A DNA stretch of 64,000 nucleotides from Gemmatimonadota bacterium (GCA_036679605.1 JAZDCZ010000386.1:123359-187358), one strand, 5' to 3'. Counted from the stretch's first letter, positions 42,873 to 63,249 are shown. Notes: a model not told the origin generated them from the letters alone. Program-made: numbers and translations.

Positions 42873-45116
42873 ATGCCGTTTGCACCCCGCCGCAAGCGCG
42901 AACTCATTGCGATAATCTCTTTCTTGGCGGGAGTCTTCACAGGGCTCGCGCTCTTGCCATGGGATATTACGGGGCCGATCGGGCGCGGCGTGGGACGGAG
43001 TCTCTGGGAATATTTGGGGCTGGGTGGAGCCTTGATTCCGATCCTGGGCATAGTTACCGGTCTCGCCGGTTTCGGACGGTTCCGAGAACTAGGACTCCGC
43101 CGCTCTGCCGTGCTTCTGGCTGGCCTGGTACCACTGGTGCCGTTCGCAGTCGCGCTCATCACAGGTATCCGAGTCTCCGACGATTTACCGGCGAGCTACG
43201 GAGACTGGACCGTTGTCCAGCAACTGGTTGGTGTGATACCTGCGTTCGTTGCAGTCTCGGTCATTTCGATCATAGGAATGGCAGGCGCGGTGATTCTCGG
43301 AGTGATTTCGCTCTCGGGCCTCACGCTCTATACGGTGGATTGGCACCCGTTTCGGAAACTGGCGCCGGGAGAACGAAAGGCGAAGGAAGAGCAGCGCGTG
43401 ATTTCAGCTGCGCGTCCCGCTGCTCCTTCCCCTGAAGTGCCCGACGATCCACCGGTGGCAAAGCGGCCGCCACGAATCAAACGAAAAGCGGCAAAGCCTG
43501 AAGAGGCGCTCGACGAACTTCCGCCCATCGACCTACTCGATGGCAGTGTCGTGGACAGTGGTGCGGTAGATGATGACGCGTTGGAGGAACTCGGAGAGGT
43601 GTTGATCGAAACGCTCGGCACCTTCAAGGTCGAGGGGAAGATAGTGGGGCGCACCACCGGTCCCGTTGTAACGCAATTCGAGATCAAACCTGCACCGGGA
43701 GTCAAGGTTGGAAAGATCGCCGCGCTGGCGGACGACCTTGCCCTCGCGATGCGCGCCAAGTCTATCCGCATCGTGGCACCAATCCCGGGGAAGGCGGCAG
43801 TCGGGGTTGAGGTCCCCAATCCCACCGCGCAAATGGTACCGCTGCGCGAACTGTTGGAGACGCCGGAGTGGGATACGAGTCGGTCGGTGCTGCCCGTCGT
43901 TCTGGGGAAAGACCTGGAGGGGAAACCGCGCATAGCAGATCTGGCCAAGATGCCGCACTTGCTGATCGCCGGTGCCACGGGCTCGGGTAAGTCGGTTTGC
44001 ATCAACACGATCATTACCAGCCTGGTCTACCGCTACACTCCGCGCGAACTGCGCATGCTCATGATCGACCCCAAGATGGTCGAGTTGTCGATGTACAATA
44101 CGCTGCCACATCTGCGACATCCCGTGGTCACTGACAACAAACAGGCAGCGCAGACATTGAAGTGGGCCATGCGTGAGATGGAACTGCGGTACAAGTTATT
44201 TCACGCAAACACCGCGCGGAACATGAACGATTTCAATCGTAAGGTCATGAGTGGGAAGGAGATGTTTCAGCCAGGGGAGTCGGGAGTAGGGAGTGGGACC
44301 GGTCATGGTAAGGGAAGTGTCGGTGCAGCGGAGAGCGAACGAACACCACTCCCCACTCCCAACTCTCCACTTCCCTATGAGGACGGCGCCCTACCATACA
44401 TCGTAATCATAGTAGACGAGCTTGCCGATCTCATGATGACCGTGCAGGGCGAAGTAGAGAAGCCGCTCGCCATCCTGGCGCAGAAGGCGCGTGCTACCGG
44501 CATACACCTCATACTCGCGACACAACGTCCGAGTGTTAATGTCATCACCGGTCTCATCAAGGCAAACTTTCCCAGCAGGATCGCTTTTCGGGTGGCGTCC
44601 AAGGTAGACAGCCGCACCATTCTCGATCAAAACGGTGCCGAAAGTTTGCTGGGCAACGGCGACATGCTGTTCCTTCCACCTGGAAAGAGCGAACCCATCC
44701 GAGTGCAAGGCGCGTTCATAAGAACGGAAGAGACTGAGGAGGTCATGGCCTGGTACAGCGAGCGCAAGGCCGAACGCGATGCAGAACTCGAGCGCAAGGG
44801 TCTCATGCCTCCGGAGTCGGGCGAGCAGGATATTCTCCAGGTGATAGCGGCCTTGGAGGCCGAAGAGGCGGGAGGGGGTACCGAAGGGGGCGGAAGCGGC
44901 GATTGGGATGTGCTGTTTAGAGAGGCCGCCGAGACGTGTATCAGTAACCAGCTTGGGTCGACGTCGTTGCTGCAGCGCAAACTCCGGATCGGCTACGGTC
45001 GCGCCGCCAGGATCATCGATCAACTATACGAGGCGGGAATCCTCGGCCCGCCCGACGGATCCAAGGCCCGCGAGGTGTTGATTGGGATGGGCGAGATTGA
45101 TGAGTACTGTGACTAG
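42873..45116 (+). CDS. ftsK: DNA translocase FtsK/SpoIIIE, with an in-frame repeat insert
   Basis: N-terminal TMs, HLLIAGATGSGKS, DELADLM, ATQRPSV, gamma domain LQRKLRIGYGRAAR. Confidence 0.96.
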   Translation: MPFAPRRKRELIAIISFLAGVFTGLALLPWDITGPIGRGVGRSLWEYLGLGGALIPILGIVTGLAGFGRFRELGLRRSAVLLAGLVPLVPFAVALITGIRVSDDLPASYGDWTVVQQLVGVIPAFVAVSVISIIGMAGAVILGVISLSGLTLYTVDWHPFRKLAPGERKAKEEQRVISAARPAAPSPEVPDDPPVAKRPPRIKRKAAKPEEALDELPPIDLLDGSVVDSGAVDDDALEELGEVLIETLGTFKVEGKIVGRTTGPVVTQFEIKPAPGVKVGKIAALADDLALAMRAKSIRIVAPIPGKAAVGVEVPNPTAQMVPLRELLETPEWDTSRSVLPVVLGKDLEGKPRIADLAKMPHLLIAGATGSGKSVCINTIITSLVYRYTPRELRMLMIDPKMVELSMYNTLPHLRHPVVTDNKQAAQTLKWAMREMELRYKLFHANTARNMNDFNRKVMSGKEMFQPGESGVGSGTGHGKGSVGAAESERTPLPTPNSPLPYEDGALPYIVIIVDELADLMMTVQGEVEKPLAILAQKARATGIHLILATQRPSVNVITGLIKANFPSRIAFRVASKVDSRTILDQNGAESLLGNGDMLFLPPGKSEPIRVQGAFIRTEETEEVMAWYSERKAERDAELERKGLMPPESGEQDILQVIAALEAEEAGGGTEGGGSGDWDVLFREAAETCISNQLGSTSLLQRKLRIGYGRAARIIDQLYEAGILGPPDGSKAREVLIGMGEIDEYCD
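44274..44375. repeat. Inverted heptamer arrays inside ftsK
   Basis: ggggagt cgggagt agggagt ggg at 44274-44297 and ccactcc ccactcc caactct ccacttcc at 44346-44375. Confidence 0.85.
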
Positions 45117-45184
45117 GGAGTGGGGAGTGGGGAGTGGGGAGTGGGACCTTCCCAAGTTAGGACAACTCCCTACTCCCCACTCTC
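45115..45184. repeat. Inverted GGGAGTN heptamer arrays directly after ftsK
   Basis: agggagt(ggggagt)3ggg, a short loop, then actccct actcccc actctct. Confidence 0.9.
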
Positions 45185-45264
45185 TGTCTTTCCCATGCCC
45201 ATTTTCGTACCACCTTGCGTTGATTTGGTTATTCTCTCGGGACGCCGCCGTGTTATCGTCTCCC

Positions 45265-45663
45265 ATGTCAATCAAGTCCGATCCTGCCAACTGGACCGAC
45301 CCGCGTCACAGGTGTGGCTACGACGGTGAAGAAACCGCAAAGGGTTTCCTAGCGGCCGAGGGGTGGGAGATCCTGGCGCACCGCTTCAGGCTGGGGCGCA
45401 TCGAGATTGACCTGATCGCTCGCAGGGGATCACTCATCGCGTTCGTTGAGGTCAAAACCCGAAAGAGCACCGCGTTCGGGAGCCCGCTAGAGGCCATTAC
45501 CTGGTCCAAGAAGCGCGATATTGTGCGAGTAGCGCGGGGTTGGATGGACCGCCATGGCCGCCCCGACTACGTGTATCGCTTTGATGTGATTGGAGTTACG
45601 CTTTCGCGCGGCGGTATGCAGATCGAACACGTCGAGGACGCATTCAGGCCCGGCTGGCGGTGA
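45265..45663 (+). CDS. yraN: YraN family protein (UPF0102)
   Basis: GEE.A..FL, EIDLIA, FVEVKTR, RFDVI, HVEDAF. Confidence 0.9.
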   Translation: MSIKSDPANWTDPRHRCGYDGEETAKGFLAAEGWEILAHRFRLGRIEIDLIARRGSLIAFVEVKTRKSTAFGSPLEAITWSKKRDIVRVARGWMDRHGRPDYVYRFDVIGVTLSRGGMQIEHVEDAFRPGWR

Positions 45664-45693
45664 GACTGGTTTCGGGATATATTCGGTAATGAT

Positions 45694-45852
45694 AGGGAGT
45701 AGGGAGAATCGAATGTCCAATGTCCAATGTCGAACAAGGAACGTCGAACAATCGAATATCAAAGTGGGGAAGTGGGAATCGGGAGTAGGGAGTCGTGGGA
45801 GTGGTAGCAATGGCATCGGCAGAGAAGGTCCACTCCCCACCCCCTACTCCCC
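45694..45852. repeat. Compound heptamer array upstream of recA
   Basis: agggagt; tcgaatg tccaatg tccaatg tcgaaca aggaacg tcgaaca; gggagt units; closing arm ccactcc ccacccc ctactcc. Confidence 0.85.
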
Positions 45853-45906
45853 AATAGCTTCAAGACTTGAGGAGTACCCAAGAAACTTAGAAGGAGTATC
45901 TAGAGA

Positions 45907-47004
45907 ATGACAACAAGACAGTCCGACAGTGAGCCGGGGACGGGGCTCCCAGAAAACCGCCGCAAGGCTTTGAACCTGGCCATAGCGCAAATAGAAAAGA
46001 ACATCGGTAAGGGCTCGATCATGCGGATGGGTGAGGAGAGAGCCCGGGTGAGGATCGGTTCTATCTCCACGGGCGCAATGAACCTAGATGCCGCGATCGG
46101 GATCGGGGGTATCCCACGTGGTCGAATCACCGAGATCTACGGCCCCGAGTCGAGTGGCAAGACTACACTCGCCCTGCATATCGCTGCGAACGCCCAAGCA
46201 GCCGGTGGTGTCGCCGCCTTTATCGATGCAGAGCACGCATTGGACGTCGAATACGCCATGAAGCTGGGTGTCGACCTCGAAAACCTGCTCGTGTCGCAGC
46301 CCGACACCGGCGAGGACGCTCTGGAGATCGCCGAGATATTGGTGCGGTCCGGCGCTGTAGATGTAGTCGTCGTCGACTCGGTTGCTGCGTTGGTGCCCAA
46401 GGCCGAAATCGAAGGCGACATGGGCGATTCGCACATGGGTCTCCAGGCGCGTCTCATGTCGCAGGCCTTACGCAAGCTCGCCGGAAGTATCAATCGATCG
46501 CGCACTTCAGTGGTCTTTATCAACCAGCTGCGCGAAAAAATCGGCGTCATGTTTGGTAACCCGGAGACAACCACCGGTGGTCGTGCACTCAAGTTCTATG
46601 CGTCGGTGCGGCTCGACGTTCGGAGAATCGGTTCGGTGAAGGAACGTGACGAGATCACTGGCAGCAAGGTTCGGGTGAAGGTGGTGAAGAACAAGGTGGC
46701 TCCGCCGTTCAAGCAGGCCGAGTTCGACATCATGTTCAACGAAGGCATAAGCCACGTCTCGCTGTTGGTCGATATCGGGGTCGAGGCCGGCGTGATAGAT
46801 AAGAGTGGTGCCTGGTACTCCTATGGTAAGGAGCGCATCGGCCAGGGTCGCGAGAACGCAAAACTGTTCCTCAAGGACCATCCGGAGATGGCGGCCGCAG
46901 TCGACGTGAGAGTGAAAGAGTTTCTGGGGATCGGCGAAAGGGCCGTAGACGAAACGGAGTCCGGCGAGAGAGTGGAAGAGACAGTAGAGGCCGACTCAGA
47001 GTAA
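45907..47004 (+). CDS. recA: Recombinase RecA
   Basis: [42 protein letters not shown]. Confidence 0.99.
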
Positions 47005-47035
47005 CATCGGAACCAACGAACTGTTGAACCGAGCA

Positions 47036-47674
47036 ATGCACATAACAAAGATCCGTACCGACAAACGGGCTCCGGGCAACATCATTGTAGAGGTGGACGG
47101 AGCCCGTTTCGCGAGTGTGCCGGCGGAAGCGGTCTCGGAGCTTCGGCTCCACCCTGGGCAAGAGCTAAAGGACGAACTACGCCAGCGGCTCTCGCACCTG
47201 GGCAACGTCGAGGCGGCCTATCATGTCGCGCTGCGTATGCTTGCCAGCCGCTCGCGCGCGGTCAATGAGTTACTACAGAGATTGCGGCGGCGCGGTCACG
47301 ATCCGGCCGCCGCGTCGCAGGCGGTCGGTCGACTCGAGTCCAGAGGCATGCTGGACGACGTACGATTCTCAGGCCATTTCGCGCGCGTGCGATTGTCCCG
47401 CGGGCACGGACCGCCGCGTGTCCTGTCCGACCTGCTTGCTTGCGGCGTCGATCGCAACATTGCCTCCCGTGCAATCGAAGAGACCCTCGATGCAGAGGGC
47501 ATCGATCCAGTCCGCGACGCCAGGGCAATAGCGGAGAAACGATCCGGCCAACTCGGCGAACTGCCACCGCAGACGAAGAAACGGCGACTGCTGGCGTATC
47601 TGCGGCGGCGGGGATACAGCGGGTACGAGGTGAGCGAGATGGTTGGGGAGGTTATGGCTAAAAACAGGGAGTAG
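47036..47674 (+). CDS. recX: Regulatory protein RecX
   Basis: Follows recA; AL.ML..RSR...EL..RL, G.LDD.RF, YLRRRGY. Start 47024 or 47036. Confidence 0.88.
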   Translation: MHITKIRTDKRAPGNIIVEVDGARFASVPAEAVSELRLHPGQELKDELRQRLSHLGNVEAAYHVALRMLASRSRAVNELLQRLRRRGHDPAAASQAVGRLESRGMLDDVRFSGHFARVRLSRGHGPPRVLSDLLACGVDRNIASRAIEETLDAEGIDPVRDARAIAEKRSGQLGELPPQTKKRRLLAYLRRRGYSGYEVSEMVGEVMAKNRE

Positions 47675-47686
47675 GGAGTGGGGAGT
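47666..47686. repeat. Left heptamer arm of the four-helix-bundle gene
   Basis: agggagt agggagt ggggagt; contains the recX TAG stop. Confidence 0.9.
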
Positions 47687-47688
47687 AG

Positions 47689-48048
47689 GTGAACAAGTAC
47701 AAATCTCTTATTGCATGGCAGAAGGCTCATGAGGCGGCAGCACTCACGCTGATCACCACCGACAAGGCGTACCATCCCCGGCACTTCTGTGTGTTCGACC
47801 AGATCCGACGAGCCGGCGTGTCTATCGAAGCAAACGTGGTAGAAGGTTACGCGCTGGGCACCACGCCACTATTCCAGAGGCATCTGAGGATCGCCATCGG
47901 ATCGGCAGCAGAGGCCGAGAGTCTAGTCAGGCTTGCGGGGCGGGTTGGATATCTAGATCGGGCGGACGTAGAGGCGCTCGTGGCCCTTTATGGCGACGCT
48001 ATGAGGGCTGTCCGGGGACTGCAGAAGAAGCTGCGCTTGAAGAAATAG
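47689..48048 (+). CDS. Four-helix-bundle protein (23S rRNA IVP / TIGR02436-like)
   Basis: YKSLIAWQKAHE, DQIRRAGVSIEANVVEG, F..HL.IA.GSAAE are typical family motifs; 119 aa. Confidence 0.9.
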   Translation: MNKYKSLIAWQKAHEAAALTLITTDKAYHPRHFCVFDQIRRAGVSIEANVVEGYALGTTPLFQRHLRIAIGSAAEAESLVRLAGRVGYLDRADVEALVALYGDAMRAVRGLQKKLRLKK

Positions 48049-48059
48049 CTTGATTTTCC

Positions 48060-48087
48060 ACTCCCCACTCCCCACTCCCTACTCTCC
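48060..48087. repeat. Right (inverted) heptamer arm of the four-helix-bundle gene
   Basis: actcccc actcccc actccct actctcc. Confidence 0.9.
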
Positions 48088-48127
48088 GAGCGTGTATTAC
48101 CTTTCCCCCAATGAAATCCGGTCCCCC

Positions 48128-50782
48128 ATGAAATCCGCCCAAATCCGCCAATCGTTCATCGATTATTTTGCCAGTCGTGGGCACACGCATGTCGCGTCGT
48201 CCTCGCTGGTGCCGGCGGGCGATCCTACTCTGCTGTTTACCAACGCGGGGATGGTCCAGTTCAAGGGCGTATTCCAGGGTCTGGAGATGCGTGACTACCG
48301 TCGGGCTGTGACGGCGCAGAAGTGTGTGAGGGCCGGCGGCAAGCACAATGATCTGGAACAGGTGGGACACACTGCTCGGCATCACACGTTCTTCGAGATG
48401 CTGGGGAATTTCTCGTTCGGCGAATACTTCAAGCGCGAGGCGATCGAGTACGGCTGGGAGTGGGTCACGAGTGAAGACTACCTCGGCATTCATCCGGACA
48501 GAATCTACGTCTCGGTACACCACACCGATGATGATGCGCGCAGGTTGTGGACCGAAGTAACTGGGATCAGCGATTCGCGCATCTACGGTATGGGTGATAA
48601 GGACAACTTCTGGCAGATGGGTGATACTGGGCCGTGCGGTCCGTGCTCCGAGCTTTTTGTAGATATCCGACCGCCGGCACAACGGTCCACCAACGCCCTG
48701 GACACCGAACAGTTCATAGACTTGAACGAAGCGGGCGAGCTGTTGGAGATCTGGAACCTGGTCTTTATGCAGTTCGACCAGGCACCGAACGGAACGCGTA
48801 CGCCTCTGCCGGCGCCCGCGGTAGATACGGGTGCCGGACTGGAGCGAATCGCGGCGGTCATGCAAGACGTCCCGTCGAATTTCGACACGGATTCCTTTAC
48901 CGAGATCATCCGTTGTGGCGAAGAGGTCGTCGGACAGCAGTACGACCGTGGCGCCGATGGTGCAAGCTTCCGCGTTTTGGCGGATCATGCGCGCGCCGTA
49001 GCATTCTTGCTGGCCGACGGTGTGTATCCCTCGAACGAGGGACGGGGCTATGTGTTACGACGTATTCTGCGGCGCGGAGTGCGGCACTCGTATCTCATGG
49101 GGCGCTCTGAGCCGACGCTCGTGCACCTGACCGATGTAGTGGTAAACCAGATGGCAGAGTTCTACCCTGAACTCGACGAGAAGCGATCGCACATCGAGAG
49201 CGTGACGCGAGCCGAGGAAGAACGATTCTTGGAGACTATCGAAGACGGCCTCAAACGATTGGATGAAATCACAACCGCTTCAACCGGGACGATCGCGGGG
49301 TCCGATGCGTTCAAGCTGTACGACACATACGGCTTCCCGATCGATCTGACACAGATCATCGCAGCAGAGCGCGGCTGGAAAGTGGACCAAGCGGGCTTCG
49401 AGGTGGAACTCGAGCAGCAACGCCAACGCTCGCGCAGTGCGCGTGCCGGCGGCACGACGGTCGGTCAGCCGAACCACTCCCCACTCCCCGGGGTGGTGGG
49501 GAAGGGCGGGGCAAAGTTCACGCGTGTGAAACCGAGAGTGCGACAGAAGTTTGTCGGCTACGAGACGACTCGGGCCGATACGGAGGTGATCGCGTTTCGT
49601 CAGTCGAACGATCAGCTTGAGTTGATTCTGCGCGAAAATCCATTCTATGCAGAGTCCGGCGGTCAGGTGAGTGACACCGGTATAGTGAAGGGTGACGGCT
49701 GGGAACTGCCCGTCACCGATGTCCGTAAGGAAAAAGAAAAGCAAGTGGTCGTGGGACCGTTTACCGGACAGTGGGAACCGACCGATGTGGAGGCGATAGT
49801 AGAAGAGCCTCGTAGACGAGATATCGAGCGCAACCATACGGCGACACACTTGGCGCACGCAGCGCTCCGCAACGTGCTTGGCACGCATGTTCGTCAGGCC
49901 GGGTCGGTTGTCTCGCCGGGTCGCCTCAGATTCGACTTCTCGCACCACGCGCCCGTCACGCAGGAACAGCTGGCGCAGATTGAAGAAGATGTGAACCGTG
50001 GCATCTGGGCGAACGTCGCGGTCGAGACCCATCAGATGAGGTACCCTGATGCGCTTGCAATAGGAGCGATGGCGCTGTTCGGTGAGAAGTACGGTGATGT
50101 AGTGCGAGTGGTAGACGTTCCCGAAATCTCAGTCGAGTTATGTGGCGGCACGCATGTAAGGAGCACCGGTCAGATCGGACTGTTCCACTTTACAGCCGAG
50201 ACGGGAGTAGCGGCAGGAGTGCGTCGTATCGAGGCAGTTACCGGCCCGGGCGCATACGGACGCGTCAAGCAATTGGACGACCGCGTGGAACAGGCCGCCG
50301 AAGCACTGCGCACCAGCCCGGAGCATGTAGCGCGAAAGATCGAGTCGCTGCTTGCTGAAAAGAAGAGATTGGAAAAACAGGTGGAAGAATTGCTCAAGGG
50401 AACAGGGAGTAGGGAGCTGGGAGTGGGGAGTGAACATCACTTGGGCAATGTTGTGCTAACGGTCGAGGATTCAACGATCGCGGATCGTAACCAGATTGGC
50501 CTCATGATGGATGCGTTCCGGCAGCAGAGTAGCAACGCCATTCGCGTCATCTTCACTACCGGCGATCGGGCGGGAATCCACGTGGCGGTTACCGATGATC
50601 TCATCTCGCAGGGAGTAACCGCAAGCGATCTCGTCAAGCGTATTGCCGCCGTTACGAGTGGAAGCGGCGGGGGCCGGCCGCACTTCGCGTCGGGCGGTGT
50701 CGGTGATCCGACGAAGCTGGATGAAGCGCGCAGTAAGACACCCGGAATCGTTGCAGAGCTACTCGGCGTGGAGGGCAGCTGA
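48128..50782 (+). CDS. alaS: Alanine--tRNA ligase
   Basis: DPTLLFTNAGM, RHHTFFEMLGNFSFG, NHTATHL, ELCGGTHV, GGGRP. Confidence 0.98.
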   Translation: MKSAQIRQSFIDYFASRGHTHVASSSLVPAGDPTLLFTNAGMVQFKGVFQGLEMRDYRRAVTAQKCVRAGGKHNDLEQVGHTARHHTFFEMLGNFSFGEYFKREAIEYGWEWVTSEDYLGIHPDRIYVSVHHTDDDARRLWTEVTGISDSRIYGMGDKDNFWQMGDTGPCGPCSELFVDIRPPAQRSTNALDTEQFIDLNEAGELLEIWNLVFMQFDQAPNGTRTPLPAPAVDTGAGLERIAAVMQDVPSNFDTDSFTEIIRCGEEVVGQQYDRGADGASFRVLADHARAVAFLLADGVYPSNEGRGYVLRRILRRGVRHSYLMGRSEPTLVHLTDVVVNQMAEFYPELDEKRSHIESVTRAEEERFLETIEDGLKRLDEITTASTGTIAGSDAFKLYDTYGFPIDLTQIIAAERGWKVDQAGFEVELEQQRQRSRSARAGGTTVGQPNHSPLPGVVGKGGAKFTRVKPRVRQKFVGYETTRADTEVIAFRQSNDQLELILRENPFYAESGGQVSDTGIVKGDGWELPVTDVRKEKEKQVVVGPFTGQWEPTDVEAIVEEPRRRDIERNHTATHLAHAALRNVLGTHVRQAGSVVSPGRLRFDFSHHAPVTQEQLAQIEEDVNRGIWANVAVETHQMRYPDALAIGAMALFGEKYGDVVRVVDVPEISVELCGGTHVRSTGQIGLFHFTAETGVAAGVRRIEAVTGPGAYGRVKQLDDRVEQAAEALRTSPEHVARKIESLLAEKKRLEKQVEELLKGTGSRELGVGSEHHLGNVVLTVEDSTIADRNQIGLMMDAFRQQSSNAIRVIFTTGDRAGIHVAVTDDLISQGVTASDLVKRIAAVTSGSGGGRPHFASGGVGDPTKLDEARSKTPGIVAELLGVEGS

Positions 50783-50787: not shown

Positions 50788-51075
50788 GTGGAGAGTTGGC
50801 TTAGGCCGCGACTGCAACAAGCACCAGAATCACTTCGTAGCCGGATTTTGGAAGCGGTCGGTAACACTACTCCCAACTCCACACTCCCCGACAAAGACGA
50901 GGAAGGATTAGCGTCCCTTCTCCAACACATTGCCGAGGGCCTACTAGAGATCGCGAAAGCCGGCGCACCCACACGCGAGACCGCCGTGACTCTGTTAGCC
51001 GCCGACGCGCTGATCACGTTTTCATGTGAGGCGGAGGCGGAAGTGGGGGTGCACAAGTTGGAAGACCTAAGATGA
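50788..51075 (+). CDS. Hypothetical protein
   Basis: 95-aa ORF just after alaS with helical LLAADALIT; contains three heptamer units at 50867-50887. Confidence 0.55.
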   Translation: MESWLRPRLQQAPESLRSRILEAVGNTTPNSTLPDKDEEGLASLLQHIAEGLLEIAKAGAPTRETAVTLLAADALITFSCEAEAEVGVHKLEDLR

Positions 51076-51076: not shown

Positions 51077-51268
51077 CGGGAAAAGGGAAGCGGCGTAGAA
51101 TATCGAATATTGAACAAGGAATTCTGAATGTCGAAGTGGGGCGAGTACGAGACGAGCATCGAGAAAACGGAAGAAGGGGGTGCACCTTCGATGTTCGAAG
51201 TTCCATGTTCGAGGTTCGATCTTCGATACTCCCCACTCCCCACTCCCCACTCCCCACTCTCTACTCTC
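51077..51268. repeat. Compound heptamer element with a 35-bp imperfect stem and a (ccactcc)n tail
   Basis: 51102-51136 pairs with 51186-51220; followed by about five actcccc-type units. Confidence 0.88.
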
Positions 51269-52069: not shown

Positions 52070-52921
52070 ATGATGACAATTGATCTGTCGGGTAAAGTGG
52101 CGCTCGTTACCGGTGGCTCGCGCGGAGTCGGGGCGGCGACAGCCGCGATCCTCTCACAAACGGGCGCACAGGTGGCAATCACGTACCGGGAGAGAAAGAC
52201 GGACGCCGAGGCTGTGCTGCGCGGGATCGAGAGAAATGTGAAAAGTGAAAAGGGGATCATAATTCAAGCCGATCTCTCGCGGGCCGAGGATTGCTCAAGG
52301 GCAGTGCAAGAGACGGTTGAGGCATTTGGCGGGCTCGACATTTTCGTTGCTAATGCCGGCATTTGGCCCGTCGACGACATTCCGGTACAAGAGATGGATG
52401 AGGAGAGATGGAGACGCACGCTAGGTGTTAATCTCGACTCTGTGTTCTTTGGGTGCAGGGCGGCGGTTAGGGCGATGAAAGGTGGACAGGGAAAAGGGAA
52501 AAGGGAAAAGGACGATGAAAAGGGAAAAGGTGATGTAGGGAGTAGGGAGTTGGGAGTGGGGAGTGCCAAGATTGTAATCGTATCGAGCACCGCGGCTCAG
52601 CGTGGCGAGTCGTTTCATGCCGATTACGCAGCGTCGAAGGGTGCGATCAATTCGTTTGTGAAGTCACTGGCGATCGAGGTAGCGCCTGAGATCAACGTCA
52701 ACGCGGTGGCACCGGGTTGGATCGACACCGAGATGTCGAGGGTTCCTTACGAGCGGGAAGCGGGAAATGGGAAGCGGGAAATCGAGCAGGCGGTACCGCT
52801 CAAGCGCATTGCGAGTGCAGAAGACGTTGCAGGGCCGATTCTGTTTCTTTGCTCGGATTTGGCGCGACACATTACCGGCGAGATTCTCAATATTAACGGT
52901 GGAGCGGTGTTGTGCGGATGA
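52070..52921 (+). CDS. SDR family oxidoreductase (FabG-like) with repeat inserts
   Basis: TGGSRGVG, NAG, YAASK, NAVAPGWIDT; GGAGG RBS. Confidence 0.9.
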   Translation: MMTIDLSGKVALVTGGSRGVGAATAAILSQTGAQVAITYRERKTDAEAVLRGIERNVKSEKGIIIQADLSRAEDCSRAVQETVEAFGGLDIFVANAGIWPVDDIPVQEMDEERWRRTLGVNLDSVFFGCRAAVRAMKGGQGKGKREKDDEKGKGDVGSRELGVGSAKIVIVSSTAAQRGESFHADYAASKGAINSFVKSLAIEVAPEINVNAVAPGWIDTEMSRVPYEREAGNGKREIEQAVPLKRIASAEDVAGPILFLCSDLARHITGEILNINGGAVLCG

Positions 52922-54204
52922 CTGAAGAAGTGAAGTTTCCCTCCAGTCTCCCGATCCCCGACGAAGTTCTTAGCATCTCGCAGACGCTCGAGGGCGCGGG
53001 GCATGAGACCTGGTGTGTCGGCGGAGCCGTGCGCGACAACCTGCTCAAGCATCCCAACAAGGACTTCGACCTCGCGACGGCGGCGACACCCGAACAGGTG
53101 CAGGGGCTGTTTCGCCGCACGATCCCTGTGGGAATCGACCACGGTACCGTCGGTGTGCTGGACAGTGACAACCAACTCCATGAGGTCACAACGTTCCGCC
53201 GCGATATCCGGACCGATGGGCGGCATGCGGTGGTCGAGTTCGGTGTATCGCTGGATGAGGATCTGGCCCGCAGGGATTTCACCATCAACGCCATTGCCTA
53301 CCATCCCCTCAAACACGAATGGCGTGATCCGTTTGACGGTGCACGCGACCTCGAGGCGGGTGTTATCCGCGCCGTGGGGGATCCGGCTCAGCGATTCAGG
53401 GAGGACTATCTCCGTATCCTACGGGCACTTAGGTTCGCGGCTCGGTTCCGCTTCACCATCGAGGACGCCACTTGGACCGCCGCCACAGCTACTGTTGCAC
53501 GGCTGCAACACCTATCCGCTGAGCGGGTGCGGGACGAGTGGTTCAAGGGGTTGGAGACGGCGCAGCGCGCCAGCGATCTCGTGAGATTGTGGGAGGTTGT
53601 GGGGGCGATGGGGGTTTGGATGCCCGACGTGGTGAAAAGTGAAAAGACAAGAGGTGAAGTAGGGAGTGGGGAGTGGGGAGTGGGGAGTGGGCATGCAGTC
53701 GTTGACAATCTTCCCTGTGATCCCGTTCTGATCACCAGTTATCTGTCGCGGGATCCGGCCGCCACCTTATCACGGCTTAGGTGCTCCAACGCCGAGGTGG
53801 AGCGGGGGAGGCGCATCGGCCAGTATCGTGATGACTTGCCTGATGCGAGCTCGGATCTGGCCGTACGCAAGTGGATGGCGACGCTCGGGAAATCCGTGGA
53901 CGACATCGTCGCAATTGCCGCTCTGGAGCAGCCAGAGTGCGGTCTGCACGATGCCGTTGAGCGGATGAGGCAGTCAGGCGCACCGCTCCAAATAGGGGAG
54001 CTGGCCATTACCGGGCGGGATCTAATGGACATTGGGGTGCCCGAAGGACCTGCCATCGGAGAGATACTACGAGATCTCATGGAGTTCGTGCTGCTGGATC
54101 CATCTAGGAATACCAAGGAGGATCTGCTGAATCGTGCTCGCACTAGTTCGACTTTTCCCTTTTCCCCTTTCCCTGGGGGTAGTGGGGGTGGGGAGGGCTC
54201 ATGA
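52918..54204 (+). CDS. cca: CCA tRNA nucleotidyltransferase / poly(A) polymerase family
   Basis: VGGAVRD, DFDLAT, DLARRDFTINA, RFREDYLRILRALRF, SAERVRDE. Confidence 0.9.
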   Translation: MTEEVKFPSSLPIPDEVLSISQTLEGAGHETWCVGGAVRDNLLKHPNKDFDLATAATPEQVQGLFRRTIPVGIDHGTVGVLDSDNQLHEVTTFRRDIRTDGRHAVVEFGVSLDEDLARRDFTINAIAYHPLKHEWRDPFDGARDLEAGVIRAVGDPAQRFREDYLRILRALRFAARFRFTIEDATWTAATATVARLQHLSAERVRDEWFKGLETAQRASDLVRLWEVVGAMGVWMPDVVKSEKTRGEVGSGEWGVGSGHAVVDNLPCDPVLITSYLSRDPAATLSRLRCSNAEVERGRRIGQYRDDLPDASSDLAVRKWMATLGKSVDDIVAIAALEQPECGLHDAVERMRQSGAPLQIGELAITGRDLMDIGVPEGPAIGEILRDLMEFVLLDPSRNTKEDLLNRARTSSTFPFSPFPGGSGGGEGS

Positions 54205-54921: not shown

Positions 54922-55019
54922 ATGTGAAAGGTGAAAGTCTAGCCTCAGACGCAAGCCTGGCACTCCCGCCGCTGCGCGGGCCCGGTCCTTTTTCACATTT
55001 CACTCTTCACATTTCACAT
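54922..55019. repeat. Short (empty) form of the palindromic element between GTGAAA/TTTCAC arms
   Basis: Flanks match those of the full copies but join at a single gctgcgc (54971-54977). Confidence 0.7.
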
Positions 55020-55020: not shown

Positions 55021-56379
55021 ATGTCTGAACCCTCTCTTTTTTCCGGATCCCAATCCCGCCCTCTCGCGGACCTCATGCGGCCTGCCACTCTTGATGATTT
55101 CCTCGGTCAAGAACACATCTTGGGCGAGGGCAAGCCGCTGCGCGAGGCGATCCTGAAGGGCGAGGTAACCTCCATGGTTTTCTGGGGGCCGCCGGGTTCC
55201 GGCAAGACCACCCTCGCTCGTATCGTCGCCCACTACACCGACCGTCATTTCGAGGCGTTCAGTGCGGTGACAGAGGGAATCCCGCGGGTACGAGAGATCA
55301 TTAAGGAAGCGAAGCAGCGCCTGGAGTACGAGGGTCGCGGCACCATCCTGTTTTGCGACGAGATCCACCGCTTCAACAAGGCGCAGCAGGATGCGTTTCT
55401 CCCCTGGGTAGAGCAGGGGATCGTGACTCTCATAGGCGCGACGACGGAGAATCCGAGCTTCGAGCTCAATGCTGCACTGTTGTCGCGGCTGCAGGTCTTC
55501 GTGTTGGAGCCGCTGGCGGAAGGACAGATCAGACAGATCGTCCAGCGCGCACTGAGTGAAACGAGAAATGTGAAAAGTGAAATGACTGAGGTTCAGCTGG
55601 GCGATGAGGCCTTGGCGCTGCTGGTAAGGTGGGCCGATGGTGACGCCAGGCGGGCCCTAAACGCGTTGGAAGCCATTATCTCCCACGTATGCTCCGACAT
55701 TTCACATTTCACTTTTCCCATTTCACACGACGTAGTCGAATCCGTCCTCGCCAAACGCCTCCCCGTGTACGACAAGTCCGGCGAGTCCCACTACAACATC
55801 ATCTCGGCGCTGCACAAGGCGGTGCGCGGGTCGGATGTGGAGGGCGCGTTGTACTGGCTGGCGCGGATGATAAGTGCGGGCGAAGATCCGCTCTTTATCG
55901 CCAGGCGTGTGGTGCGGATGGCGAGTGAGGACATCGGCCTGGCCGATCCGCGTGCGCTCTCGATCGCGCTGGCGGCGAAGGATGCATTTCACTTTCTCGG
56001 ATCGCCGGAAGGGGAACTCGCGATCGCCGAGGCGGTGATCTATTTGGCCACGGCACCCAAGTCGAATCGTGTGTACGAGGCTTGGAGTAAGGCGATGAGT
56101 GCCGCAGAAGCACACCCCAACGAGCCTGTCCCCCTGCATATCCGGAACGCACCGACCGGTCTCATGAAAGAACTAGGCTACGGCAAGGGCTACCGTTACG
56201 ACCACGCGGAAGACTCAGGACTGGCGGCCGGTCAGGAGTATCTGCCCGATGCGCTCCGGGACGCCAAGTGGTACGAGCCGACGGAGTTTGGGTTTGAGCG
56301 AGATATCGCGAAGCGAATGGAATGGTGGGAGGAGTTGAAACAAAGGGCGGGAGAAAAGGGCGGTCAAGAAGGGCGGTAG
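55021..56379 (+). CDS. rarA: Replication-associated recombination protein A (MgsA)
   Basis: WGPPGSGKTTLA, DEIHRFNKAQQD, GATTENPSF, ISALHKAVRGSD, ASEDIGLADP. Confidence 0.96.
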   Translation: MSEPSLFSGSQSRPLADLMRPATLDDFLGQEHILGEGKPLREAILKGEVTSMVFWGPPGSGKTTLARIVAHYTDRHFEAFSAVTEGIPRVREIIKEAKQRLEYEGRGTILFCDEIHRFNKAQQDAFLPWVEQGIVTLIGATTENPSFELNAALLSRLQVFVLEPLAEGQIRQIVQRALSETRNVKSEMTEVQLGDEALALLVRWADGDARRALNALEAIISHVCSDISHFTFPISHDVVESVLAKRLPVYDKSGESHYNIISALHKAVRGSDVEGALYWLARMISAGEDPLFIARRVVRMASEDIGLADPRALSIALAAKDAFHFLGSPEGELAIAEAVIYLATAPKSNRVYEAWSKAMSAAEAHPNEPVPLHIRNAPTGLMKELGYGKGYRYDHAEDSGLAAGQEYLPDALRDAKWYEPTEFGFERDIAKRMEWWEELKQRAGEKGGQEGR

Positions 56380-56448
56380 AACTGGGCGGTAGAATTCGAC
56401 AGCGGGAAAAGGGAAAAGGTGTCAACTGTGAAATGTGAAGCTCCCCAC

Positions 56449-56564: not shown

Positions 56565-56806
56565 GAGGGTGGCCTCGATCCAACCCAATTGATCCGAGTA
56601 TCGGAGAATGTCGGTCGATCTACGGCATATTTGCGGTCACAATCCGGTATATTACCCGAGCAAAATGAGTGTTATGGGAGTGCTGGTGGGGAGTGGAGAC
56701 GATTCCGGCCTGAGGTCGGAGCGGCAGATTGGTGGTGTGTTCTGACGATTCCTAAACTGAACGCAAGGGTCTGGAGACATCCGACGAGTCACGAGGAAAG
56801 GAGAAT

Positions 56807-56950: not shown

Positions 56951-57005
56951 CCGACCGGTCCCGTACGTTTCGAAGAAAGCGGTGGACCTGCAGAAGTAGT
57001 TCAAT

Positions 57006-58859: not shown

Positions 58860-60322
58860 AGACACTGATCATAGGGCTCGACTGCGCTGCCCCGGAGATT
58901 CTCTTGGGTGACGAGAGTTTGACAAACTTTCGGCACTTAATGGGCGCAGGGTGCTACGGGCGTCTGGAAAGTGTTGTGCCGCCGATCACGGTGCCGGCGT
59001 GGATGTGCATGTCCACCAGTCAGGACCCGGGCTCACTCGGTGTATACGGGTTCCGCAATCGAGCCGACCACACCTATTCGGGGCTCGAGATAGTAAATTC
59101 GCGTTCAATTCGTGCCTTGTCGATTTGGGATCAGGTGGCCATGGAGGGGGGACGCTCGGTTGTGATTGGTGTTCCGCCGTCGTTCCCACCCAGGAAGGTC
59201 AACGGTATATGTGTTGGTTGCTTCATGACGCCCGATACCTCGACCGACGATTACACGCACCCGGCGAGTGTGAAGGATGAGATCGCGGCACTTGTAGGGG
59301 AGTACCCGGTCGACGTCAAAGGCTTTAGGACCGATGACAAGGATTGGCTGCGGGACCATATCTTTGAGATGAGTCGCACTCAGTTCAAGGTGATAAGGCA
59401 CTATCTGGAAAGCGCCGAATGGGATCACTTTCAGTTCGTGGATATTGGACTCGACAGAGTGCATCACGGCTTCTGGAAATACCACGATCCCGAGCACCGG
59501 CACTACGAGGCCGGCAATCAATATGAGAATGTGATCCGCGAATACTACCGGCATCTCGACGTGGAAGTCGGGCGACTGCTGGGCATGCTGACGGATGATA
59601 CCGTGGTGCTGGTCGTCTCGGACCATGGCGCGCGCGCGCTCGACGGCGGCTTCTGTGTCAACGAATGGCTCGTGAAGGAAAAGTTACTGGTGCTCAACCG
59701 CTATCCCGACGCAGTGACACCGTTCAGTGAACTGGATGTGGATTGGAGCAAGACGAAAGTCTGGAGTGAAGGCGGATACTACGCGCGCGTATTTCTCAAC
59801 GTCAAGGGGAGAGAACCGCAGGGCACGATCGATCCATCCGATTACGAGGCGGTGCGAGATGAGGTCAAGGCGTTGTTCGAGGCTACGGTAGACGACGAAG
59901 GCGAACAGATGGGAACACTCGTCTTCAAGCCCGAAGAGCTCTATGCGATGGTCAAGAATGTAGCTCCGGATCTCATCGTTCACTTCGGCGCCCTCGCCTG
60001 GCGTTCGATCGGAGGTGTCGGTTACGACACCATTCACGTGCAGGAGAACGACACCGGTCCGGATGACTGTAACCACGCGCAGTTCGGTGCCTTCATCCTG
60101 GCATCCGGTAACAATCCGCTGAGCGGGGAGCTTGAAGGCACGCGTCTCCTCGACATGGTACCCACGGTGCTCGAACTCGGCGGCCATGACATCCCCGACT
60201 CCATGCAAGGTCGATCCCTGGTACACGGTGTCTCAAGCGACGGTGACACACCTCCCGTAATGCCCGAGGATCGTGAGGCGCTCATCCGCGAAAGGCTGAA
60301 AGGCCTCGGCTATATCTCCTGA
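58856..60322 (+). CDS. Alkaline phosphatase superfamily protein (nucleotide pyrophosphatase/phosphodiesterase type)
   Basis: IIGLDCA, PITVPAW, DRVHHGFW, VSDHGA, C-terminal RLKGLGYI. Confidence 0.88.
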   Translation: MKTLIIGLDCAAPEILLGDESLTNFRHLMGAGCYGRLESVVPPITVPAWMCMSTSQDPGSLGVYGFRNRADHTYSGLEIVNSRSIRALSIWDQVAMEGGRSVVIGVPPSFPPRKVNGICVGCFMTPDTSTDDYTHPASVKDEIAALVGEYPVDVKGFRTDDKDWLRDHIFEMSRTQFKVIRHYLESAEWDHFQFVDIGLDRVHHGFWKYHDPEHRHYEAGNQYENVIREYYRHLDVEVGRLLGMLTDDTVVLVVSDHGARALDGGFCVNEWLVKEKLLVLNRYPDAVTPFSELDVDWSKTKVWSEGGYYARVFLNVKGREPQGTIDPSDYEAVRDEVKALFEATVDDEGEQMGTLVFKPEELYAMVKNVAPDLIVHFGALAWRSIGGVGYDTIHVQENDTGPDDCNHAQFGAFILASGNNPLSGELEGTRLLDMVPTVLELGGHDIPDSMQGRSLVHGVSSDGDTPPVMPEDREALIRERLKGLGYIS

Positions 60323-60409
60323 CCACTGCGGCGTCTTTGCGCGGACCTTTCGGGGGCAGATTAGGGAAAAGGACGTCAGCTGTGAAAAGTGAAATGTGAA
60401 GCTCCCCAC

Positions 60410-60525
60410 GCCTCGCATGCTCGGCACTGTCCCTCCGTGCGCTGTGGTTCGCGAGCAAGGCTGGACATCCTAAGGCTCTGGGCCGCGAACCAACGCGCGC
60501 TCCGGAACACCGCGGCATGCTGCGC
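60410..60525. repeat. ~117-bp palindromic element, copy B
   Basis: Close to copy A in its first half; gtgaaa arm on the left, tttcac arm on the right. Confidence 0.9.
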
Positions 60526-60588
60526 GGGCCCAGGCCTTTTTCACGTGTCACATTTCACATTTCACGTCTCAAGGCTGGCACTCCCGTC

Positions 60589-60728
60589 GCTGCGCATGCT
60601 CGGCACTCTCACCGCTCCGCATGCCGGCACTGTCCCTCCGTGCGCTGCGGTTCGCTTGCAAGATCGGAGATCCCAAGTAGTTCTGCCGCTCACCAACGCG
60701 CGCTCCGGAACACCGCGGCATGCTGCGC
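60589..60728. repeat. Palindromic element, copy C, with a short internal duplication
   Basis: Same termini; the gctNcgcatgc..cggcact start occurs twice. Confidence 0.88.
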
Positions 60729-60751
60729 GGCCAGCATTGATCCCAACGCAA

Positions 60752-60780
60752 TTGACACAGAGTATCTGAGAATGTAGCTT
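60752..60780 (+). promoter_or_regulatory. Possible sigma70 promoter followed by an inverted repeat
   Basis: TTGACA-17 nt-TAGCTT, then atttaccgc-N6-gcggtaaat at 60782-60805. Confidence 0.5.
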
Positions 60781-60893
60781 GATTTACCGCGTATTAGCGG
60801 TAAATATCCGGTAGATTAACCGGTAAAATGAGTGTTATGAGGGGAATTGTGTGGCATGGTGGCAACTTCCGCGAAGAGCTACGAGGTGGACTG

Positions 60894-61250
60894 ATGCGAA
60901 TCGAAACAACTTTGACGGACGAGCTGGAGCTGAAACAACTGGAATGGGTGCGCAGCACACTCGGCGTGAAGAAAAACGCCGCGGTGCTTCGGGATGCGTT
61001 GGTACTGCTCGCGTGGGCTGTCAGAGAGATAATGGAGGGTCGCCGGATTGCCAGCATAGATCGCCAAGGGTCCAGCCTGCGCGAGTTCAGCAGCCCACTG
61101 TTGGATAGGGCTACATGGTTGCAGCGTGACACAATCGAGTTGACCCCAGACGGATTCGCACGGGTTGCCGAGCTTGTCAGTACTCCGCCGGCACCCACCG
61201 GAGAGTTGCGAGAACTGTTGAGGGAAAAGGATGTGAAGAGTGAAAGGTGA
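60894..61250 (+). CDS. Antitoxin-like protein (RHH-like N-terminus, DUF1778-like C-terminus)
   Basis: C-terminal IELTPDGFARVAELVSTPPAPTGELRELL resembles DUF1778/TacA; GAGG RBS. Confidence 0.5.
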   Translation: MRIETTLTDELELKQLEWVRSTLGVKKNAAVLRDALVLLAWAVREIMEGRRIASIDRQGSSLREFSSPLLDRATWLQRDTIELTPDGFARVAELVSTPPAPTGELRELLREKDVKSER

Positions 61251-61286
61251 AACTCTAACCCCAGGCGCAAGACTCCAGCTTCCGTC

Positions 61287-61403
61287 GCTCCGCATGCTCG
61301 GGACTGTCCCTCCGCGCCCTGCAGTTCGCTAGCCAGGGCCAGAGATCCAACTCAGTTCTGCCGCTCACCGACGCGCTCTCCGGGACACCCCGGCACGCTG
61401 CGC
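61287..61403. repeat. ~117-bp palindromic element, copy D
   Basis: gctccgcatgctcggg...gggacaccccggcacgctgcgc inside heptamer arms. Confidence 0.9.
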
Positions 61404-61454
61404 GTCGGCTCTTTTCACCTTTCACATTTCACATCTCAAGCCTGGGGCTCACCT

Positions 61455-62003
61455 TCAGATCGGTCGGAACAACTCTGACAACTCGAGTGTGAACGGCTTC
61501 ACGGCGTCCGCCGGGCTCCAGGCTACAGATTGCGCCTTAACTGTAGGGAAGGTGTCGGCCGGGGTCCACACCTCGACCAATTGCTGGTCGGGATCCACGA
61601 TCCAATACACCGGCACTCCCACTTCCTGATATAACCTGCGCTTGGTGAACCGATCGTACCGAGCCGTCGTTTGGCTGAGGACCTCGATGGCGAGTAGTAA
61701 GGTCTGGACGTTCTCCCATTCGTCGGTCCGGATTTCGTCCAGATCGGCAACGAACACGTCGGGTTGCACCAGAGTGTCGGCTCCCCAGGAGATGTCGGCC
61801 GGCGAAGTCAGCACTGAACCGACACTGCATTCCTCGAGGTAGTTCGCAATCGCTGCGGTAAGTCCCCCAACAACTAGCTGATGCAGGATGCTGGGGATCG
61901 GTGTCACCAACAACTCCCCGTGTACGGTCTCGTAGCGCTTCCCGTCGTCGGGTAGCGCACGGACCATTTCGGCCGAGTAATAGATTGGAGCGGCCATACC
62001 CAT
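61455..62003 (-). CDS. Uma2 family (DUF820) endonuclease, copy 1
   Basis: LPDDGKRYE..GEL.V.P...HQ, VQPDVFV, LAIEVLS, DRFTKRRLY...GVP.YWIVDP; 182 aa. Confidence 0.9.
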   Translation of the reverse strand: MGMAAPIYYSAEMVRALPDDGKRYETVHGELLVTPIPSILHQLVVGGLTAAIANYLEECSVGSVLTSPADISWGADTLVQPDVFVADLDEIRTDEWENVQTLLLAIEVLSQTTARYDRFTKRRLYQEVGVPVYWIVDPDQQLVEVWTPADTFPTVKAQSVAWSPADAVKPFTLELSELFRPI

Positions 62004-62127
62004 AAGGTCGCCTCGGCTGTGCGTGGGAGCAAGCACACGGCCTCCCTTCAGGGTCGTCCAGCGCGAAGCGGGAAAAGCCAGTGGAATGTGAAACTCTAAC
62101 CCCAGGAGCAAGACTCCGGCTTCCGTC

Positions 62128-62244
62128 GCTCCGCATGCTCGGCACTGTCCCTCCGCGCACTGCGGTTCGCTCCCAAGGGCCAGAGATCCAACTCAGTTCT
62201 GCCGCTCACCGACGCGCTCTCCGGGACACACCGGCATGCTGCGC
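62128..62244. repeat. ~117-bp palindromic element, copy E
   Basis: Nearly identical to D and F; outer ctaaccccagg/cctggggttag inverted repeat. Confidence 0.9.
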
Positions 62245-62314
62245 TGACCCGGACCATTTCACGTTTCACATTTCACATAATTTCACATCTCAAGCCGCCT
62301 GGGGTTAGCCCGTC

Positions 62315-62863
62315 CTAGATCGGCCGGAACAACTCCGACAACTCCAGTGTGAACGGCTTCGCGGCGCCGGCCGGGCTCCAGGTTACGACTTGCGGCTCAA
62401 CCGTCGGGAACGTGTCGTGTGGTGTCCACACCTCGACCAATTGCTGGTCGGGATCCACGATCCAATAAACCGGCACTCCCACTTCCTGATAGAGTCGCCG
62501 CTTGGTGAAGCGATCGTAGCGAGTTGTGCTCGGACTCAGAACCTCGACGGCCAGTAGCAAGGTCTGGATGTTCTTCCACTCGCCTGTCCGCAACTCGTCG
62601 AGGTCGACGACGCAGACGTCGGGTTGGACCAGAATGCCTGTCCCCCACGATATATCCGCGGGCGAACTTAGCACAAACCCGGCACCGCATTCCTCGAGGT
62701 AATTCCCAACGGCCATGATTAGTCGCGTGACGACTTGTTGGTGCGAAGTACGGGGCGCCGGTGTCACCAACAACTCCCCGTGCACGGTCTCGTAGCGCTT
62801 CCCGTCGTCGGGTAGCGCACGGACCATTTCAGCCGAGTAATAGATTGGAGCGGCCATACCCAT
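62315..62863 (-). CDS. Uma2 family (DUF820) endonuclease, copy 2
   Basis: Paralog of 61455-62003, same length, offset by 860 bp. Confidence 0.9.
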   Translation of the reverse strand: MGMAAPIYYSAEMVRALPDDGKRYETVHGELLVTPAPRTSHQQVVTRLIMAVGNYLEECGAGFVLSSPADISWGTGILVQPDVCVVDLDELRTGEWKNIQTLLLAVEVLSPSTTRYDRFTKRRLYQEVGVPVYWIVDPDQQLVEVWTPHDTFPTVEPQVVTWSPAGAAKPFTLELSELFRPI

Positions 62864-63080
62864 AAGGTCACCTCGGCTGTGCGTCGGAGCAAGAGCATTG
62901 CATGGGTTAGAGTAATGCCGCCACCCACGAGATCCGGTACCATTCCAGCGCAGCGAGGTGCGAAAAATCGGTATAAGAAGGGCGGTAGGACTGGGCGGTA
63001 GAATTCGACAGCGGGAAAAGGAAAAAGGGAAAGGGGAAGCGGCCGCTTTCACATCTCACATCTCAATCCCGGCTCCCGTC

Positions 63081-63197
63081 GCTCCGCATGCTCGGCACTG
63101 TCCCTCCGCGCCCTGCGGTTCGCTAGCAAGGGCCAGAGATCCAACTCAGTTCTGCCGCTCACCGACGCGCGCTTCGGGACACACCGGCATGCTGCGC
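63081..63197. repeat. ~117-bp palindromic element, copy F
   Basis: Nearly identical to D and E. Confidence 0.9.
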
Positions 63198-63249
63198 TGA
63201 GCAGGGCCCTTTCACGTTTCACCAATATGGTGTAGCGCCCACGCCGCTC

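Follow-up and report, generated by a model that had tools for sequence, protein, structure and literature searches.

The window analysed here is a stretch of 64,000 nucleotides from a Gemmatimonadota bacterium (GCA_036679605.1, JAZDCZ010000386.1:123359-187358) in which a small four-helix-bundle gene lies amid numerous tandem arrays of 7-nt units. It forms the end of contig C319 of the source genome G000, a 6.7-Mb assembly of 434 contigs with 96.5% completeness and 6.3% contamination; compared genomes, contigs and stretches are numbered with G, C and L, respectively. From 42.9 kb onwards, the gene order is ftsK, yraN, recA, recX, the four-helix gene, alaS, an open reading frame (ORF) of 95 aa, a PHP-family gene, a short-chain dehydrogenase/reductase (SDR) gene, cca, a ZIP transporter gene, rarA, two phosphodiesterase genes and two Uma2-family genes.

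The four-helix gene (47689..48048, + strand, 119 aa) occupies the gap between recX and alaS and passed the profile cut-offs of PF05635 (72.7 bits) and TIGR02436 (71.2 bits). The closest homologs of its product are found in Gemmatimonadota and the nearest solved structures are 2GSC (XCC0516, the best match) and 2RLD, each with five chains; a single-sequence fold gave a mean predicted local distance difference test (pLDDT) score of 49 and was not used. Repeat scans revealed a 5' arm of 3.4 GGGAGT[AG] units that begins at the recX stop codon (47666..47689, +), and a repeat finder together with a predicted fold located its complement as a 3' arm (48058..48086, -). Both arms are predicted to pair into a stem around the gene (z -2.9), and we refer to the gene with its arms as a cassette.

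Tandem Repeats Finder detected dense period-7 arrays over 44275-63065 and none in 1-44 kb. A sequence-agnostic period-7 scan returned no array in 1-44000 and 23 in 44000-64000, which upholds an earlier sequence-only reading of the window that had counted none in the first 44 kb and more than 20 thereafter, while a family-motif scan yielded 39 tracts past 44 kb and one short match, at chance level, before it. The repeat units named in that reading were recovered as described, as were the tracts joining different families (45694-45805, 52488-52564 and 53632-53691). Across G000, 60 arrays of at least three units were found, compared with 0, 0 and 0 in three codon-shuffled genomes. Most of them are located in the window, on C217 and at the ends of C254 and C154; 535 of 615 10-kb bins are empty (variance 1.71, mean 0.28), and the richest bin, with 18 arrays, corresponds to 46.6-56.6 kb of the window. 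The notion of a localized burst thus holds insofar as the arrays are clustered, but the burst is not unique, C217 being equally dense and devoid of a four-helix gene.

Same-family neighbours within 600 nt are arranged, genome-wide, as +/- in 11 cases and -/+ in one for GGGAGT, and in 7 and 1 for GTGAAA, confirming that the purine-rich arm comes first in inverted pairs. By our reading of the family-motif scan, the window contains about 12 inverted pairs and about 7 unpaired tracts. With genes called by our own script, a stop codon lay no more than 20 nt from the beginning of the purine arm in 21 of 40 cases, and a start codon in 4 of 40. Cyanobacterial short tandemly repeated repetitive (STRR) sequences are heptamer repeats, and the traits of such heptamer simple sequence repeats, which include the GGGAATC repeat of Xanthomonas, are present here as well: tandem 7-nt units in few copies, with inverted pairs near stop codons. 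Those repeats are, however, dispersed over the whole genome, as are the arrays of G068 and G169, whereas the G000 arrays are clustered. A search of 44-64 kb against Rfam gave no match near the gathering score and no rRNA match.

Arm units follow the protein lineage and form two overlapping halos

Our arm survey comprised 164 distinct four-helix genes with sufficient flank, one of them from the unpublished genome G056, on which none of our conclusions rests. Complementary periodic arms were found at 127 of the 164 genes but in only 3 of 236 shifted control windows, and the 5' arm was purine-rich in 117 of the 127. The period was 7 or 14 in 90 of the armed genes, 8 in 15 and 9-13 in the remainder, so that the constant period of 7 noted earlier applies to the window and not to relatives, where periods of 8 to 11 are reached. 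Paralogs within one genome never shared a unit (0 of 15 pairs; unit similarity 0.42 versus 0.43 for random pairs), and the only other four-helix gene of G000, on C210, has arms of a different unit. Nearest homologs in other genomes showed a unit similarity of 0.64 and a shared period in 79% versus 52%. Unit similarity increased with protein identity, and in a quick tree of 126 genes a clade of period-8/9 proteins extended over four genomes. We conclude that arm unit and period track the protein lineage and not the host genome.

Four-helix genes of the cyanobacterial clade (L210, L214, L223, L239) have GGGAGT[AG] arms like those of the window gene, with proteins placed in another clade. Reading frames nested across the cassette occur in 3 of 162 cases, of which L001 (3630-7649; G000 C210, a contig that may be contamination) was the one inspected. 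There, a 1339-aa frame resembling a type III DNA methyltransferase remains uninterrupted across a Y1-transposase-like insert whose ends are like repetitive extragenic palindromic (REP) sequences, and also across the second four-helix gene of G000, which is nested in another frame and has ATAGTGA-type arms.

Within the window, GGGAGT[AG] accounts for 15 arrays (44275-53662) with a median position of 47667, the gene's own arm, and GTGAAAN for another 15 (52231-63210) with a median of 60382, the arrays of either set not being independent of one another. The GTGAAA half of the burst does not match the arms of the resident gene; it matches those of a cassette that relatives carry between the ZIP transporter gene and rarA. 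At this zip-rarA site, G000 has a hairpin (54924..55019) whose arms are GTGAAA arrays and whose short loop is REP-like; the filled alleles of relatives identify it as a vacated four-helix site: G059 and G058, both of the same genus as G000, have a four-helix gene with GTGAAA arms there, and G001 has one with GGGATT arms. The 3' arm of G059 ends at the same base before rarA as the G000 hairpin, and its 5' junction was inferred, since a contig break falls inside that arm. The GTGAAA set of the window is therefore attributed to a GTGAAA-armed four-helix gene once held at the zip-rarA site, as in G059 and G058. Accordingly, the window comprises two overlapping halos: the GGGAGT arrays surround the resident gene, and those of GTGAAA the vacated site.

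Own-unit orphans near cassettes were counted within 7 kb, the counts being merged by hand. In G000, 11 of 47 GGGAGT orphans lie within this distance of the gene (expected 0.1, 110-fold) and 9 of 46 GTGAAA orphans within it of the zip-rarA site (94-fold); the corresponding values are 8 of 21 in G058 (74-fold), 7 of 35 in G059 (49-fold), 4 of 28 in G170 (27-fold) and 2 of 27 in G001 (13-fold, two arrays). In G068, more than 10 period-8 arrays form a halo around a cassette of the same period. Other G059 cassettes use the units GCAGAGT, with 1 of 15 orphans within 7 kb of its cassette, and GGGCGGTAGAA, which also occurs as orphans in the window: repeat scans revealed a compound tract after rarA (56342..56440, +) in which this 13-14-nt unit, the one that makes up the arms of that other G059 gene, is joined to GGGAAAA and GTGAAA.

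At the genome level, we classified 149 genomes of the phylum, excluding G000 and G056, as array-rich when they held at least 10 matches to four in-register GNGA units, a pattern that overlooks some units. With kin not being independent, 62 of 97 genomes with a four-helix gene were array-rich, compared with 6 of 52 without, and within the family the proportions were 47 of 61 and 3 of 10. The sequence-only reading had named the four-helix protein as candidate partner of the arrays; a tie between arrays and four-helix genes is supported by the arms, by the co-occurrence and by the approximately 110-fold excess of its own unit within 7 kb, but not for the GTGAAA half, which belongs with the other cassette.

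Concerted unit switching between genomes

Comparison with relatives revealed that arrays at equivalent positions are often built from different units. Directly after the ftsK stop codon, a GGGAGTG hairpin (45116..45190) has a counterpart of equal place and size in G059, with GTGAAA arms. The alaS loop that carries an in-frame GGGAGT array at 50397..50432 (+) measures 40-41 residues in 15 of 16 aligned genomes, with units that differ among G000/G059, G062/G108, G041 and G001. Across relatives, the cca loop spans 47-51 residues and is written in GTGAAA, GGGATGC, GGGAAAC or GGGAGRC units; in G000 (53632..53691, +), a private 12-residue GGGAGT block has been added to an older GTGAAA block that is common to G059 and G058. 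The unit of the rarA or cca loop equals the arm unit of the zip-rarA cassette in six of seven genomes (GTGAAA in G059 and G058, GGGATT in G001, GGGAAAC in L173 and L174, GGGATGC in L176), with a partial match in the seventh, L170. At equivalent sites, the two arms of a hairpin and the enzyme loops beside it change their unit in concert between genomes, often with no difference in length.

True insertions occur too. In the SDR gene, alignment revealed a compound in-frame insert of GGGAAAA followed by GGGAGT (52488..52564, +) that adds 26 aa relative to outgroups and 16 aa relative to G059, next to a GTGAAA array common to G059 (52231..52252, +) and a GGGAAGC array with zero net length change (52752..52782, +), both in frame. 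ftsK contains an in-frame GGGAGT hairpin (44275..44375; repeat scan and alignment) in a loop that exceeds that of most relatives by 8-15 aa. By repeat scan, a lone GGGAGT array lies in frame in another alaS loop (49474..49489, -), and repeat scan and alignment placed two in-frame GTGAAA arrays in rarA at 55556-55584 (+) and 55697-55727 (-). In-frame arrays in housekeeping genes, here ftsK, alaS, SDR, cca and rarA with all frames open, are a trait resembling Rickettsia palindromic elements (RPEs). Coding GTGAAA arrays show AGA or GGA in the unit that would otherwise read TGA, a sign that stop codons are selected against.

Among the ftsK-rarA stretches of 16 relatives, 8 have at least four arrays, 3 have one or two, and 5 have none (G023, G052, G161, G025 and G049); six of the 8 have no four-helix gene in the part fetched. 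The yraN-recA-recX block of G062 (L091 9558-11702) has the opposite orientation between ftsK and alaS; one of its breakpoints carries arrays, and the genome gave no PF05635 match. In G058, recA is flanked by two GTGAAAA hairpins on a contig separate from alaS-rarA, and both recA (L250 3445-4460, C6) and rarA (L162 6454-7819, C4) are apparently frameshifted in the assembly.

Possible origins of the arrays

Both constituents of the locus have precedents. The 23S rRNA intervening sequence (IVS) found in Coxiella burnetii carries an S23p gene in a stem with heptamers before its start, which is cut by RNase III (PMC4990558). The window cassette shares with such ORF-bearing IVSs the PF05635 gene in the loop of a terminal-inverted-repeat stem and the heptamers before the start codon, but it lies between recX and alaS, outside any 23S rRNA, and is encircled by orphan copies of its arm unit. 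In Xanthomonas campestris, 186 GGGAATC arrays of unknown function, 70 of them in inverted pairs, were reported near stop codons, along with a Nostoc heptamer unit GGGGA(C/T)T (Rehm 2015, PMC4692102). These repeats agree with ours in period, in their approximately four units, in inverted pairs by stops and in being in part in frame; they were described genome-wide, with one consensus and no partner gene, whereas the window holds several clustered families, each tied to a four-helix lineage. Repeat 15 in the supplement of that study is an array over the start of XCC0516, labelled 'conserved' only. XCC0516 is the four-helix protein of PDB 2GSC, a link to the arrays that the available text of Rehm 2015 does not draw.

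Diversity-generating retroelements (DGRs) with Avd involve a related four-helix pentamer family and likewise replace a short DNA patch instead of inserting one (PMC10053308). They differ from the present case, in which no reverse transcriptase (RT) lies beside the window gene and what is copied is a tandem unit. REP/REPIN elements with their REP-associated tyrosine transposases (RAYTs), as well as RPEs, are short hairpins that follow stop codons and also occur in frame within housekeeping genes. Like the RAYT systems, the cassette combines an autonomous gene with flanking repeats that the gene presumably spreads; unlike them, its arms are periodic with turnover of units, its protein lacks a known catalytic site, and the RAYT of G000 has other palindromes, in part lodged inside heptamer hairpins. 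An RPE is one conserved palindrome inserted whole, whereas the in-frame copies here mostly consist of one arm, about 28 nt long, whose unit varies, and often bring no gain in length. The window system operates in the manner of an IVS-type cassette with REP-like satellites and belongs to neither class. Our search, with subscription journals outside its coverage, found no literature linking the PF05635 family to heptamer arrays; heptamer arrays and the gene-in-hairpin design have each been described before.

The best reading of these data, in which we place even confidence, is cassette-seeded local copying of the arm unit. The four-helix gene and its complementary arms would constitute an exchangeable cassette of rRNA-IVS design inserted between ordinary genes. 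After its arrival, the unit would be copied in blocks of about four to tolerant nearby places, namely directly after stop codons and into glycine-rich enzyme loops, a causal direction suggested by the observed pattern. Copying would either add sequence or overwrite an older array, by which arms and adjoining loops would change together, as seen between genomes, and stop-bearing frames would presumably be purged by selection. Loss of the gene leaves the halo, whose hairpin loops then gather REP palindromes and small toxin-antitoxin or Uma2 genes, and over time the unit may spread genome-wide. The pentameric four-helix protein may bind the arm unit on single-stranded nucleic acid and thereby fix which unit is propagated.

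As for the copying step, arm mismatches show no strand bias (G-T 115, A-C 124) and no RNA-strand G-U bias, which fits homogenisation at the DNA level. No RT was found in the array-rich genomes G068 (100% complete) and G108 or on C319; the 12 RT matches of G000 lie on C405, C184, C251, C418, C357, C308 and C130, seven of them being full-length in 450-800-aa frames near contig ends. Among genomes with a four-helix gene, 22 of 41 without a Y1 transposase match and 39 of 47 with one were array-rich, compared with 1 of 6 that had Y1 and no four-helix gene. An RT or Y1 transposase as required partner was hence rejected, while the higher array counts where Y1 and four-helix genes co-occur make a helper role of Y1 possible. 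Dispensability of RT and Y1, together with the symmetric mismatches, therefore favours short-patch template switching at the DNA level, most likely by host replication or repair and most effective over a few kb. Template switching is a proximity-dependent process.

Several observations weigh against seeding by the cassette. Own-unit orphans within 6 kb were absent at 79 of 105 genes and numbered three or more at only 5 of 105, and the own-unit excess in this survey (57 versus 2.9) shows a match of units, not locality. Comparison of 20 gene-centred with 20 far windows in six genomes gave 9 versus 9 arrays of period 7 and 35 versus 16 of periods 7 and 8 (p 0.12), and unit-matched counts were 12 versus 3.8 over 13 genes (p 0.31); as the far-control window L128 contains the rarA locus, this contrast is slightly weakened. 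The enrichment of period-7 arrays with proximity to four-helix genes expected by the sequence-only reading was thus recovered as the excess of the own unit at this locus and not in the paired windows. The strongest halos mostly represent one orthologous locus and are not independent. Own-unit matches reach at least 243 in G068 and 201 in G169 genome-wide, which speaks against a purely local model, and near XCC0516 of Xanthomonas 4 arrays compare with 0.7 expected (5-fold), other operons being denser. C217 holds 11 of the 47 GGGAGT arrays in 22 kb with no four-helix gene, and array density shows no steady fall-off with distance. Six array-rich genomes have no PF05635 match, and the five tested have no TIGR02436 match either. 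A residue-to-base code was unconvincing (best mutual information 0.339 versus a null 95th percentile of 0.333, 69 dereplicated proteins), and no catalytic partner for the cassette was found; two GxxExxY genes of G000 lie on contigs other than that of the window.

A uniform halo around every four-helix gene is ruled out by the near/far tests and by the 79 genes without orphans. The suggestion that the process acts only locally is likewise not supported, as own-unit arrays occur genome-wide in G068, G169, G170 and Xanthomonas and most genes have no halo. Regarding C217, its genes lie 11-63 kb from rarA by synteny in G161, G045 and G058, and it may therefore be the same region as the window. On C217, C154 and C254, a custom profile run at E up to 10 detected no four-helix gene, whether hidden or decayed, and no direct joins among the array clusters were found, the contig ends meeting only in repeats.

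Unlikely, yet to be taken seriously, is an origin independent of the protein, in which slippage and the correction of palindromes lengthen heptamer arrays, STRR-like, in permissive regions with a high turnover, and four-helix genes, like REP elements and toxin-antitoxin genes, land in existing hairpin loops and inherit the local unit. The C217 cluster, with nested arms around other cargo, the array-rich genomes without the gene and the non-significant near/far tests agree with it, slippage is cited as an explanation in the discussion of Rehm 2015 (PMC4692102), and 9 of 11 REP-like core copies outside the window are armless, from which it follows that cargo does move into hairpins. It does not account for paralogs within a genome differing in unit while homologs across genomes are similar, for arms at most four-helix genes and almost no controls, or for two units segregating around two cassette sites, and slippage alone would not switch both arms and the neighbouring loops to a new unit.

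TRAP wraps its RNA repeats, and by analogy the pentamer might wrap 7-nt RNA repeats, the arrays being selected regulatory sites of an operon-level regulon for termination, processing or translation. Their position at stop codons and operon junctions (compare Rehm 2015, PMC4692102), the approximately four units per array next to the five chains in 2GSC, and the reported effect of Nostoc heptamers on recF and recO expression, with an unidentified partner (bioRxiv 2022.06.06.494920), are in line with this proposal. We nevertheless consider it improbable, as arrays overwrite enzyme loops, outlast gene loss and change unit wholesale between genera, the same operon is array-free in the five relatives named above, and Rehm 2015 (PMC4692102) found no regulatory role. 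Marginally more improbable still is RNA-templated writing, in which a transcript is cut at the stem like an rRNA IVS, the RNA set free is retained by an Avd-like pentamer, and the arm RNA serves as the template by which short patches of nearby DNA are replaced, as in DGR retrohoming: replacement without length change, the resemblance of the PF05635 family to Avd (PMC10053308), RNase III cleavage of the heptamer-bearing Coxiella IVS stem (PMC4990558) and the bias of purine arms towards stops over starts speak for it, the missing RT in G068, G108 and the window contig and the lack of G-U bias on the sense strand against it.

Should cassette-seeded copying hold, mutation of this kind would edit the loops of proteins and provide small mobile genes with places to land. 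At this locus, loops of essential enzymes are rewritten in step with the adjoining cassette. Bacterial heptamer repeats, plentiful and still lacking an explanation, and PF05635, a very large family with no assigned function, are linked here; the locus predicts, for each protein, the unit to be bound or spread and offers one site in both its occupied and its empty form. More tentatively, four-helix (IVP/Avd-like) proteins may possibly be specificity factors of an undescribed DNA-writing system without a transposase or RT of its own. If so, each lineage would cause its 7-11-nt unit to be written as about four copies that replace nearby chromosomal DNA or are added to it, and bacterial heptamer repeats in general (STRR, Xanthomonas GGGAATC), along with lineage-specific loops in essential enzymes, would stem from this system.

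Palindromic satellites and further features

A REP-like palindromic element of 120-135 nt occurs in 17 copies in G000, six of them in the window (56440-56564, 60401-60525, 60613-60728, 61270-61403, 62111-62245 and 63069-63198); no matching transposase was identified and no Rfam match was obtained. GTGAAA hairpins enclose such palindromes at 60382..60565 (125 nt; genome repeat search), 61233..61438 (repeat scans) and 62081..62288 (genome repeat search, with the reference copy 62111-62245), and a compound tract of GGGCGGTAGAA, GGGAAAA and GTGAAA surrounds a further copy at 62980..63222 (repeat scans). Two Uma2-family genes (PF05685; profile search) lie between two hairpins each, at 61455..61997 (-), which we read as cargo, and at 62315..62857 (-). 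These tandem paralogs (61455-62857) have near-identical upstream regions and are each followed by the same hairpin element, indicating a local duplication.

Repeat scans further located a compound hairpin between yraN and recA with GGGAGT, AATGTCC, TCGAA and GGGAAG units (45695..45860), another before the PHP-family gene with GGGAAAA, TCGAA and GGGAGTG units (51078..51261), and a GGGAAAA-type array at the cca end (54152..54200); an array scan placed a GGGAGT array within the 95-aa ORF downstream of alaS (50866..50890, -).

Beyond the window, C217 (L073, L074, 1-22 kb) represents a capsule and sulfate-activation locus. Many small genes of the toxin-antitoxin, Fic, Uma2 and DUF4143 types lie in and between its nested arms; a 1.8-kb transporter gene and a 4.3-kb stretch of such small genes are enclosed by nested GTGAAA/GGGAGT arms. 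C154 carries a RAYT-like Y1 transposase (L075 8400-9600) with its own, different REP palindromes, some of them inside GTGAAA hairpins, and this region is followed by a long 10-nt tandem repeat. Finally, C162 of G000 (L081 501-10279) contains a tandem series of three kinase-TPR paralogs, about 1050 aa long, with a purine-rich heptamer arm after each.

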